Shown here piece after piece: positions 866 to 1,532 of a stretch of DNA of 39,160 nucleotides. Source of the DNA: an uncultured Clostridium sp. (GTDB taxonomy: Bacteria > Bacillota > Clostridia > TANB77 > CAG-508). Below the pieces are notes generated by a model, which did no database searches, had not been told where the DNA came from, and was given only the letters and a program-made list of their open reading frames with translations. How positions within the stretch are numbered: the stretch's first letter is position 1; every line of letters starts with the position of its first letter. The DNA is taken from NCBI GenBank assembly GCA_964493175.1, contig CAZBMU010000001.1, positions 1-39,160 on the forward strand. Reading direction: 5' to 3'. Position numbers and translations under genes: made by a program.

Positions 866-959
866 ATTACATCACCTCTACGTATATTATAACATATTAT
901 GTAGATTTAGTGTGTCGAAAGGTGTCGAGTGTCGCTGTTATTTTTTGTCAATTTTTATA

Positions 960-988
960 TTGACATCATATTAGATTTTTGATATAGT
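960..988 (+). promoter_or_regulatory. Sigma-70-type promoter for the small + strand gene
   Basis: TTGACA (960-965), 17-nt spacer, TATAGT (983-988), with TG upstream of the -10. Confidence 0.6.
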
Positions 989-1006
989 ATGTGTTAAGTT
1001 GTTAAA

Positions 1007-1122
1007 CCCTTTCAAAGTTGGGTGCATAGATTAGTAGTTTAATTACTATTTCTAGCAGTTCAACTATTAATCCGTGCACCTAACTTTCAACGGATTGTTT
1101 GGTGCAACTACGAAAGAAAGGG
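1007..1122 (+). promoter_or_regulatory. Structured 5' leader: 28-position hairpin plus 5'-end/SD pairing
   Basis: Arms 1021-1048 and 1053-1080 give 22 Watson-Crick pairs, 3 G-U pairs and 3 mismatches; the G-U pairs work only in the + sense. CCCTTTC (1007-1013) is complementary to GAAAGGG (1116-1122), which overlaps the SD. GGTGCA at 1101-1106 is an alternative partner for TGCACC at 1075-1080. Confidence 0.5.
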
Positions 1123-1131
1123 GGATAACCT

Positions 1132-1293
1132 ATGCAGAAATACATAGGAATTGGATTTGTAATTCTTTGTTTATCTGTGCTGGCAGGTATAATTGGTATC
1201 CTTAGATATCAGTTCAAATTAAGCAAAGAAAAAGTTGATATAAGCCCAGCGGACGCTAATATCAACCAATCCAATAAAACAACCGATGAGTAA
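1132..1293 (+). CDS. 53-aa membrane peptide (one N-terminal TM helix, charged tail); candidate type I toxin or moron product
   Basis: ATG at 1132 with a GGGGG SD; translation MQKYIGIGFVILCLSVLAGIIGILRYQFKLSKEKVDISPADANINQSNKTTDE. It has its own promoter and terminator and is oriented against the phage operons. Confidence 0.6.
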   Translation: MQKYIGIGFVILCLSVLAGIIGILRYQFKLSKEKVDISPADANINQSNKTTDE

Positions 1294-1318
1294 GGGCTCG
1301 CCCCTTGCTCGTTTTTTA
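1288..1318 (+). terminator. Rho-independent terminator
   Basis: 9-bp stem GAGTAAGGG/CCCTTGCTC (one G-U pair), 5-nt loop, then a T6 run. Confidence 0.7.
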
Positions 1319-1319
1319 T

Positions 1320-1348
1320 ATAATACTATTATTACTCATTTGTGTCAA
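1320..1348 (-). promoter_or_regulatory. Convergent promoter (candidate antisense RNA promoter 1)
   Basis: Minus sense: TTGACA (1348-1343), 17 nt, TATTAT (1325-1320). It points into the 3' end of the 53-aa ORF, and no ORF lies downstream. Confidence 0.5.
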
Positions 1349-1377
1349 TGACTATTTTATTACATTTATGTTACAGT

Positions 1378-1406
1378 ATTGTAACACTTCTTTTTGTATC
1401 TGTCAA
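1378..1406 (-). promoter_or_regulatory. Convergent promoter (candidate antisense RNA promoter 2)
   Basis: Minus sense: TTGACA (1406-1401), 17 nt, TACAAT (1383-1378), preceded by TG. Confidence 0.5.
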
Positions 1407-1532
1407 TATTATAACACAGATTTTTCCAAATTGCAAATTTCATTAAAATCAAGCCAAAAACCGACCTTCTACAATCCAAAATAAGCCGATTTAAAAATCA
1501 AACAATGTACTTATATACCTTAATTTAAGCAT

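Follow-up and report, generated by a model that had tools for sequence, protein, structure and literature searches.

The hallmarks of type I toxin mRNAs, as compiled in the T1TAdb paper, are pairing of the Shine-Dalgarno sequence (SD) with an anti-SD, long-distance interactions between the 5′ and 3′ ends and terminal stem-loops, and antisense RNAs of Gram-positive families are found on the 3′ side, where they overlap the toxin open reading frame (ORF) except in Fst/RNAII and SprA1 (PMC8594479). In the bsrG/SR4 system of the B. subtilis SPbeta prophage, the bsrG mRNA forms a long 5′-3′ helix, P1, one nucleotide from the terminator and its SD is double-stranded; of the SR4 stem-loops, one complements the toxin terminator, and initial contact is made between the loop of SR4's own terminator and a loop of the bsrG mRNA (PMC3834814). 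The toxins of C. difficile prophages are 34-53 aa long with a hydrophobic N-terminus and a Lys-rich tail, and type I systems of this species have been shown to contribute to prophage maintenance (PMC7699646; PMC6563280). Here we analysed a stretch of 39,160 nucleotides from an uncultured Clostridium sp. (contig CAZBMU010000001.1, positions 1 to 39,160; hereafter the window, to which coordinates refer), in which an initial annotation made from the letters alone had proposed a type I toxin-antitoxin-like locus at the left end of a prophage. Comparative sequence evidence supports this proposal, namely selection on the peptide, a covarying sequestration of the SD and a conserved set of antisense promoters and terminator, and we estimate a probability of about 0.7 that the locus represents a type I toxin-antitoxin module whose family has not been described before.

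In its predicted architecture the module matches all of the T1TAdb hallmarks as well as the Gram-positive layout, and bsrG/SR4 is the closest in architecture. Like bsrG/SR4, txpA/RatA, bsrE/SR5 and yonT/SR6, which reside in prophages or prophage-like elements of B. subtilis, it is carried by a Firmicutes prophage and encodes a small peptide with a single transmembrane (TM) segment. As in the bsrG/SR4-type systems, the two genes are convergent and the antisense RNA is predicted to overlap the 3′ end of the ORF and the toxin terminator (here 1227-1313/1319) (PMC8594479; PMC3834814). As in bsrG/SR4, a 5′-3′ helix would close the toxin mRNA beside its terminator with the SD in a double-stranded region (PMC3834814; PMC8594479), and the antisense RNA has one stem-loop that complements the toxin terminator and, as its own terminator, another that complements a stem-loop from the 3′ part of the toxin mRNA (PMC3834814). 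However, no sequence relationship, in peptide or RNA, is detectable to bsrG/SR4, TxpA/RatA or the other named Gram-positive families, and the module differs from bsrG/SR4 by a dedicated 5′ anti-SD that would sequester the SD from 100 nt upstream across a 74-nt hairpin, by two tandem antisense promoters and by its hosts, which are uncultured gut Clostridia. With C. difficile pairs such as CD0977.1-RCd11 and CD0956.2-RCd10 it shares prophages of Clostridia, convergent overlapping toxin and antisense genes and, by prediction, short and long antitoxin forms (PMC7699646; PMC6563280); unlike the CD0977.1 group, its peptide has a net neutral tail, and tblastn of the phage collection gave no hits above chance level (E >= 5).

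We fetched ~45 related loci from species-representative genomes, IMG/VR and metagenomes. Their DNA similarity begins at the -35 box of the plus-strand promoter (960) and stops at the -35 box of the outer minus-strand promoter (1406), with unrelated flanks beyond both points, and by this onset and end of conservation the limits given in the initial annotation (940-1410) are nearly exact natural boundaries. All elements of the locus exceed chance and are kept across the ~45 loci in spite of their unrelated flanks, which on comparative grounds indicates a conserved, self-contained module. The peptide ORF itself falls among the small (20-60 aa) hydrophobic peptides under selection that characterize type I toxins: a hydrophobic segment covers about residues 5-24 (Kyte-Doolittle 2.7), AlphaFold2 models one helix over residues 3-36 with a low-confidence tail, and the median pairwise ratio of nonsynonymous to synonymous substitution rates (dN/dS) is 0.14 at a mean dS of ~1 (codons 2-40), indicating a real gene under purifying selection. 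Of the initial description of a 53-aa single-TM peptide with a charged tail, the ORF, the TM segment and the charge hold; with 5 K/R and 5 D/E, however, the tail has no net charge, which sets it apart from the basic tails of the C. difficile toxins.

Next to the peptide gene we located the signals of a dedicated mRNA (Table 1). A consensus scan of 600-1700 returned 14 promoter-like and 3 terminator-like sites, compared with 6.3 +/- 2.5 and 0.2 +/- 0.5 in shuffled sequence, and all sequence features listed in the initial annotation were found where it had placed them or a few bases away. The near-consensus plus-strand promoter scores 11/12 and is conserved in homologous loci at 131 to 144 nt upstream of the ATG. 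The plus-strand intrinsic terminator is likewise conserved, with covariation (GC19/AU8), and is 97.9% paired on the plus strand against 94.5% on the minus strand. The predicted mRNA thus bounded by two conserved signals of its own lies within the 150-400 nt of dedicated toxin mRNAs. Folding of 995-1320, one of the checks suggested at the outset, gave a minimum free energy (MFE) of -112.3 kcal/mol (z = -8.96), and none of 100 shuffled sequences folded as well.

Two motifs occur just upstream of this promoter. Three GTGTCG repeats, the first two of them GTGTCGA, lie at 911-935, that is 25-50 nt 5′ of the -35 box, and many prophage-linked copies, though none of the chromosomal group, carry a TGT(C/T)GA motif 40-90 nt upstream of the -35; positions homologous to the GTGTCG region are found in L001-L006, L009, L011, L012, L014-L016, L036, L037, L043 and L044. 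This motif may be an operator that couples toxin transcription to a phage regulator. Perfect DnaA-box nonamers (TTATCCACA) are found just 5′ of the toxin promoter, 194-215 nt upstream of the peptide ATG, in four homologous loci (L008, L011 with two copies, L014 and L036), and none in the window.

Covariation in homologues, another of the suggested checks, was assessed by RNAalifold on 30 distinct leaders and by pair counts on the MFE structure of the window. RNAalifold predicts the anti-SD:SD helix together with a long hairpin, H1. We found the leader structure to be 92.3% paired across the 30 homologues, compared with 35-47% when the partners are slid by 1-3 columns; 16 leader pairs have changed on both sides, and none of 500 shuffles matches the observed pairing, compensatory-change or covariation values. 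The initial annotation held that the G-U pairs of the leader work only in the plus sense, and this agrees with the 92.3% pairing, including 130 G-U cells, on the plus strand against 83.7% on the opposite strand. The proposed pairing of a 5′-proximal CCCTTTC with the GAAAGGG of the SD is also borne out: the helix is 93.3% paired in the 30 sequences, with compensatory changes in 4/7 pairs. Two of its positions change jointly (UA13/CG11/UG6 and CG14/UA12), so that CCCUUUC:GAAAGGG alternates with CUCCUUC:GAAGGAG.

The leader hairpin first outlined at 1021-1080 is real and larger than stated, and the GGTGCA at 1101-1106 that had been noted as an alternative partner belongs to a second hairpin, H2, which is mutually exclusive with the 3′ arm of H1 (Table 1). 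Because H2 also shows compensatory changes, at 1080/1101 (CG14, TA9, TG3), 1081/1100 (TA20, CG4) and 1083/1098 (AT17, GC5), H1 and H2 may form a switch. H1 has been deleted naturally between GTGCA repeats in the copy of L027 (at 3001-3162) and in the second copy of L028, and both retain anti-SD and SD along with the ORF and antisense elements. The start codon lies in the stem of a further small hairpin, and the Y-I-G codons place a second constraint on the downstream arm of this hairpin.

Furthermore, we found a feature that is missing from the initial annotation: in the MFE structure of 995-1320 the 5′ end of the mRNA pairs with a segment just upstream of the toxin terminator. Such 5′-3′ interactions are a feature of several type I families, not all. 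Other loci pair their ends through different sequences (GAUGAAGU/ACUUCAUC, AGUUAGAUUUUU/AAAAAUCUAACU and AGUUGAAU/AUUCAACU). Because the 5′ ends are out of register in the full-length MAFFT and RNAalifold alignment, we compared duplex energies of cognate and non-cognate ends, and found that cognate 5′/3′ duplexes average -8.2 kcal/mol and non-cognate ones -6.1, with 0 of 20000 permutations as good (p < 5e-5). In some copies the stop codon is shifted relative to the 3′ arm and the terminator, and the arm is therefore preserved for RNA and not for coding reasons. Collectively, these results indicate a sense RNA built to hide both the SD and the AUG and to tie its two ends together.

In general terms, hok/Sok of plasmid R1 resembles the module in its 5′-3′ closing helix and sequestered SD. 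The full-length hok mRNA is reportedly closed by a 5′-3′ fold-back helix, with the SD sequestered in the inert form (Franch et al. 1997, as cited in PMC8594479). Sok pairs with the 5′ leader, in the mok translation-initiation region, and not with the 3′ end, and hok/Sok is a Gram-negative system. The module has no homology to it, and a conserved leader ORF did not turn up, no search having been aimed at one. The hok likeness invoked by the initial annotation resides in the 5′-3′ helix, which it had overlooked.

On the opposite strand, the two promoters with TTGACA boxes and 17-nt spacers that had been noted from the window score 11/12 and are conserved in most loci. According to the per-locus scan, the -10 box of the inner promoter (P1) ends 15-37 nt past the stop codon, abutting the toxin terminator in most loci, and most loci have the outer promoter (P2) 64-134 nt past the stop codon; the scan found no P2 in L010, L013 and L017, whose inner promoter is a perfect 12/12. 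The initial annotation also lacks the stop signal of these transcripts, a terminator located within the ORF that consists of a hairpin (hairpin B) and UUUUUCUUU, the complement of AAAGAAAAA that forms the K-E-K codons at 1225-1233. Across 29 sequences hairpin B and a second hairpin (hairpin A) are 95.5% paired, compared with 35-45% when slid, with compensatory changes UA20/CG9, CG17/UG9/UA3 and UA12/CG4/UG3/AU2, and none of 500 shuffles reaches the pairing or the covariation score. For hairpin B, pairing reaches 95.9% on the minus strand (19 G-U cells) and 90.3% on the plus strand (1 G-U), a bias opposite to that of the toxin terminator.

The two predicted antisense RNAs (Table 1) are fully complementary to the last ~70 nt of the ORF and the toxin terminator, that is to ~90 nt of the mRNA 3′ end, as expected for a cis-encoded antisense gene that has its own promoter and terminator and is complementary to the toxin mRNA. 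Hairpin A is the complement of the toxin terminator and is joined to hairpin B by an open linker, AUCGGUUGUUUUAUUGGAUUG; in the MFE structure of the long form, the 5′ extension pairs with this linker. We conclude from the conserved signals that the antisense transcript is probably a small RNA in its own right, with a defined end and complementarity to the 3′ part of the sense RNA. The toxin terminator was also considered as a bidirectional stop for the antisense transcripts, and was rejected: its minus-strand U-run starts several bases past the stem, and the stem pairs better on the plus strand. The embedded terminator fits better.

The par (fst/RNAII) system of Enterococcus faecalis pAD1 is likewise convergent around the terminator region, Gram-positive and equipped with a small TM toxin, but its antisense RNA avoids the ORF and pairs via 5′ direct repeats outside the overlap (PMC8594479). 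We rejected a mechanism of this kind for the module: the only repeat between the leader side and the antisense side, 1163-1178 with 1388-1403, sits in the P2 spacer and would be untranscribed. The initial annotation had pointed to hok-, fst- and bsrG-type architecture; the module is closer to bsrG/SR4, and also to txpA/RatA, than to fst, as its 3′ overlap takes in the ORF and 5′ direct-repeat pairing is missing.

Alternatively, the minus-strand promoters could belong to the 57-aa and helix-turn-helix (HTH) genes at 692-865 and 400-600, in which case the overlap with the peptide gene would be accidental. Both genes do follow on the minus strand in the direction of transcription, and the sites directly 5′ of the 57-aa gene resemble promoters only weakly (9/12). 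However, the conserved hairpin and UUUUUCUUU at 1266-1225 should stop transcripts inside the ORF. Furthermore, homologues of these genes accompany the module in only three other loci (both in L035, the 57-aa ORF only in L011, the HTH gene only in L047), whereas the promoters are kept in most loci, including chromosomal ones where the neighbouring genes are unrelated. The initial annotation had named promoters that serve only these two genes as an outcome that would refute an antitoxin role, and the conserved terminator in the ORF and the many loci that lack the genes contradict this outcome, which we regard as very improbable.

Table 1. Predicted elements of the module and neighbouring features of the prophage, in window coordinates.
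Feature	Position	Strand	Details
Sense (toxin) promoter	960-988	+	TTGACA-17-TGnTATAGT, TG extension; 11/12; predicted start near 995-997
Predicted toxin mRNA	995-1319	+	~325 nt: ~137-nt leader, ORF, terminator
5′ arm of 5′-3′ helix	998-1003	+	GUUGUU; pairs with 3′ arm AACAAC, 1278-1283
Anti-SD	1007-1013	+	CCCUUUC; pairs with GAAAGGG at 1116-1122
Leader hairpin H1	1014-1087	+	11/31 pairs changed on both sides
Alternative hairpin H2	1075-1084 with 1097-1106	+	UGCACCUAAC with GUUUGGUGCA; 90% complementary
SD	1116-1124	+	GAAAGGGGG; predicted to be sequestered by the anti-SD
AUG hairpin	1129-1148	+	CCUAUG...CAUAGG, AUG in stem; helix 98.3% paired
Peptide ORF (putative toxin)	1132-1293	+	53 aa, single TM; MQKYIGIGFVILCLSVLAGIIGILRYQFKLSKEKVDISPADANINQSNKTTDE
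Toxin-mRNA terminator	1285-1319	+	Intrinsic; stem 1285-1313, core 1288-1296 with 1302-1310, then T-run
Inner antisense promoter P1	1348-1320	-	TTGACA-17-TATTAT; 11/12; predicted start near 1313
Outer antisense promoter P2	1406-1378	-	TTGACA-17-TGnTACAAT, TG extension; 11/12; predicted start near 1371
Antisense terminator in ORF	1266-1225	-	Hairpin B 1266-1234, then UUUUUCUUU (U-run)
Predicted short antisense RNA	1313-1227	-	~87 nt; hairpin A, single-stranded linker, hairpin B
Predicted long antisense RNA	1371-1227	-	~145 nt, from P2; fold z = -2.9
XRE-type HTH gene	400-600	-	66 aa, small; prophage left end
57-aa ORF	692-865	-	No family match; prophage left end
Endolysin-like C39/SH3 protein	1592-2963	-	Lysis cassette; downstream of module
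Holin-like protein	2977-3276		Lysis cassette; tail genes also downstream of module
ImmA-like peptidase	33984-34394		Just inside tRNA-side prophage end
Tyrosine integrase	34384-35511		Just inside tRNA-side prophage end
tRNA-Met gene	35593-35669	-

We also fetched five loci of distant members (P0068, P0075, P0076, P0083 and P0087), in which the peptide identity is roughly 35-60%. A strong plus-strand promoter lies 96-140 nt upstream of the start codon, the L050 contig holding only the -10. Every one of these loci has a 5′ segment complementary to the last codons, an anti-SD that fits its own SD (e.g. CCCACC:GGUGGG and UAUCACC:GGUGAUA), a terminator and, just past it, a minus-strand promoter of up to 12/12. 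In every one, a minus-strand hairpin stands at the same place of the ORF next to a U-run, with stems that are unrelated in sequence, such as GAAUUGAAGU/ACUUCAAUUC, UUGAAGUUA/UAACUUCAA and GUUGGGGUC/GACCUCAAC; MFE folding recovers this hairpin in 4/5, and in L055 it was read by eye. The same architecture written in different sequences points to deep conservation.

The distant peptides retain an N-terminal (Y/F)(I/V)G(I/L)GF, the TM segment, G-Y and then (K/R)(E/K)K-(I/V/L)-(D/E)-(I/V)-x-P, which in the window reads KEKVDISP. We found that residues 35-46 covary with the hairpin arms (1234-1266): V-D-I occurs with N-I-N, I-E-V with N-F-N and I-E-I with E-I-N, and the D...F combination is absent among the family peptides. 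These arm-linked pairs of amino acids suggest that the conserved tail motif is partly an RNA constraint from the opposite strand. Under this hypothesis, KEK may be the U-tract, and VDI...NIN, IEV...NFN and IEI...EIN the two arms of the stem, as seen through the genetic code.

If the locus is a type I toxin-antitoxin module, its plus strand would make a ~325-nt mRNA for a 53-aa single-pass membrane peptide, and this mRNA would be translationally silent as transcribed, with the anti-SD on the SD, the AUG in a hairpin and the ends closed by the 5′-3′ helix, a closure that probably also stabilises it. The two tandem minus-strand promoters would make antisense RNAs of ~87 and ~145 nt, both ending at the in-ORF terminator, and their linker would cover the 3′ arm of the 5′-3′ helix. 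By analogy with bsrG/SR4, txpA/RatA and hok, the duplex of antisense RNA and mRNA would trigger RNase III-type decay and/or lock the mRNA in its closed form. After loss of the cassette or a shut-off of transcription, the antisense RNA, as the less stable partner, would decay first; the mRNA would then be processed or refolded (H1-to-H2), and the peptide would be made and damage the membrane, so that loss of the prophage would be penalised or an infection aborted. Conservation of the anatomy, covariation, strand specificity of the pairing and purifying selection are what the sequence comparisons show, and we infer transcription, toxicity, the RNase pathway and the biological role.

By its complementarity to the 3′ arm of the 5′-3′ helix the linker resembles the mRNA's own 5′ end, as both pair with the segment 1278-1283. 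This raises the tentative idea, to which we give rather low odds, that the antitoxin terminator is written in toxin codons, making the peptide motif partly an RNA constraint, and that the linker mimics the mRNA 5′ end and displaces it from a hok-like fold-back helix. If true, the displaced 5′ end would be exposed to 5′-dependent decay, rather than the ribosome site being blocked, and this would be a new mode of action for a 3′-overlapping antitoxin in Gram-positive bacteria. The most original aspects of the module are the antisense terminator embedded in the ORF, together with its trace in the peptide sequence, and the possible mimicry of the 5′ end by the linker.

Several observations weigh against a type I toxin-antitoxin module. 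The window's own 5′-3′ helix is short (6 bp) and individually not significant, and the antisense terminator was uncalled by the standard scan because its loop has 9 nt. Antisense pairing at the 3′ end alone fails to explain translational control, as the SD is sequestered with or without the antisense RNA. Finally, unlike the Lys-rich tails of many Gram-positive toxins, the tail is net neutral and bears a strongly conserved KEK(V/I)(D/E)(I/V)xP, which could hint at a defined interaction partner instead of unspecific damage to the membrane.

Most of the remaining probability goes to an alternative in which the peptide is a small membrane protein without toxicity, the product of a prophage accessory gene under antisense control. 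It could, for instance, act in superinfection exclusion or modulate the adjacent holin and endolysin, with the RNAs tuning its level or timing instead of holding back a poison; we judge this unlikely. This alternative would agree with a tail that is not basic, with a gene that in prophages always adjoins the lysis cassette and is convergent with it, and with a juxtamembrane KEK(V/I)(D/E)(I/V)xP that is kept even in distant members and suggests a specific interaction. However, the conservation of this motif is partly explained by the antisense terminator on the opposite strand, the entire cassette, RNA elements included, is also found away from phage genes, and it is multi-copy and sometimes pseudogenised. 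Furthermore, three layers of translational silencing and two strong antisense promoters typify harmful products (PMC8594479), which favours the toxin.

Database searches place the peptide outside described families. DNA searches of 600-1700 against 50,697 phage records, in near and distant modes, gave no match; tblastn with the peptide gave only chance-level matches (E >= 5) in these phages and none with E <= 1 among 72,556 plasmid records. Rfam 15 returned nothing at gathering score and, at E <= 10, only spurious long-hairpin miRNA-type matches. Profile searches of PHROGs, PADLOC, NCBIfam and PDB found nothing for the peptide at threshold, and a full-text search of a collection of papers for peptide fragments found none that contains them. 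The peptide was unfamiliar to the initial annotation, and we likewise found no Pfam, PHROG, NCBIfam or PDB family with a threshold-level match.

One automatic annotation nevertheless assigns the peptide to the OadG-like gamma subunits, which anchor a Na+-translocating decarboxylase in the membrane. JGI labels one cluster accordingly, and 36/45 family members match Pfam OAD_gamma (PF04277) below threshold, with a best E-value of 5.9e-5. The window peptide, however, reaches only 20.6 bits against a Pfam gathering cut-off of 27 and 14.9 bits against 36.05 for NCBIfam oadG_fam, the family profile finds no chain among solved structures, and genes for the decarboxylase alpha and beta subunits are absent from all neighbourhoods examined. 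The similarity, the only one to recur among the family's profile matches, reflects a TM helix followed by a polar tail, and on score and genomic context we reject this assignment, which is hardly credible.

The family comprises 60 homologous peptide clusters of 60-89% identity, mostly ~53 aa and all derived from metagenomes or metagenome-assembled genomes (MAGs). A profile search of 1.84 billion representative proteins returned only 35 clusters, nearly all of 48-82 aa, and the family is therefore small and restricted. One common type of locus, P0010, was seen on 207 contigs. Named hosts are uncultured Clostridia or Clostridium sp. from the guts of humans, rabbits, chickens and other animals. 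The prophage copies adjoin, and are convergent with, endolysins of differing types (Amidase_2, CHAP+ChW, GH25 and, in the window, C39-like), and chromosomal copies stand beside amidohydrolase, radical SAM, phosphofructokinase, ABC-F, cadherin-like and purine-synthesis (SAICAR synthase) genes. The association with prophages put forward initially thus holds in that the module is found at prophage ends, but the family is not restricted to them. One MAG has three copies and two others have two each, L028 carries two copies 2.5 kb apart (3001-3147 and 5531-5692), and the ORF is frameshifted in three loci. Sites at prophage ends and in chromosomes, multiple copies and occasional frameshifts make a distribution that type I toxin-antitoxin systems typically have.

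Altered ORFs were seen in L039, L047 and L048 and in P0005, P0011, P0018, P0042, P0056 and P0062, some frameshifted and others having lost the stop; the stop-less copies read through the terminator and their peptide ends in ...DEWGESLT.... Such alterations suggest either that the copies are decaying or that the C-terminus tolerates variation.

Type I systems readily escape homology searches, and apart from C. difficile the Clostridia have few known ones. The module adds a family of well over 60 sequence clusters from gut metagenomes of humans, rabbits, chickens and other animals, and the covariation-supported map of both RNAs permits its annotation in MAGs, where one cluster is now labelled 'OadG'. 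Should the peptide be toxic, the cassette could make prophages more stable in gut Clostridia that are abundant but uncultured and, like the C. difficile toxins, might serve as a counter-selection tool. It also offers a clear natural case in which an RNA terminator on one strand co-evolves with a peptide motif encoded on the other. Overall, the finding is useful for annotation and directly testable, and not conceptually surprising.

The window consists of a prophage plus a small amount of host DNA. A 19-nt direct repeat, TTTGGTAGCGAAGATGTGA, is found at 1-19 and 35591-35609, and the second copy is the 3′ end of the tRNA-Met gene, beyond which lies a host aminotransferase gene. As this att repeat is identical to the tRNA-Met 3′ end, the prophage spans 1-35609 and the contig begins exactly at attL. 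The repeat, the tRNA and the integrase thus bear out the placement of the module at the left end of a prophage, where it lies between the lysis genes and attL and therefore in a classic accessory-gene position.

The 57-aa and HTH genes at the same end might form a separate small regulatory or toxin-antitoxin-like pair; the HTH protein matches the PADLOC 'HTH_VI' model and models of restriction-modification control proteins. In the early/lysogeny region, a FuFi-1 RNA (Rfam RF02986), a phage-associated small RNA motif, scores 82 bits at 32703-33018 on the plus strand, against a gathering score of 59.6. The endolysin-like gene consists of two overlapping minus-strand ORFs, one (2469-2963) with an N-terminal TM segment that ends at about ...IGSSGC, the other (1592-2557) starting at about ...GATCGAM and bearing the C39-like peptidase and SH3 domains. 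This split looks like a frameshift in the overlap at 2469-2557, for which a sequencing error, a pseudogene of a decaying prophage or recoding could account.

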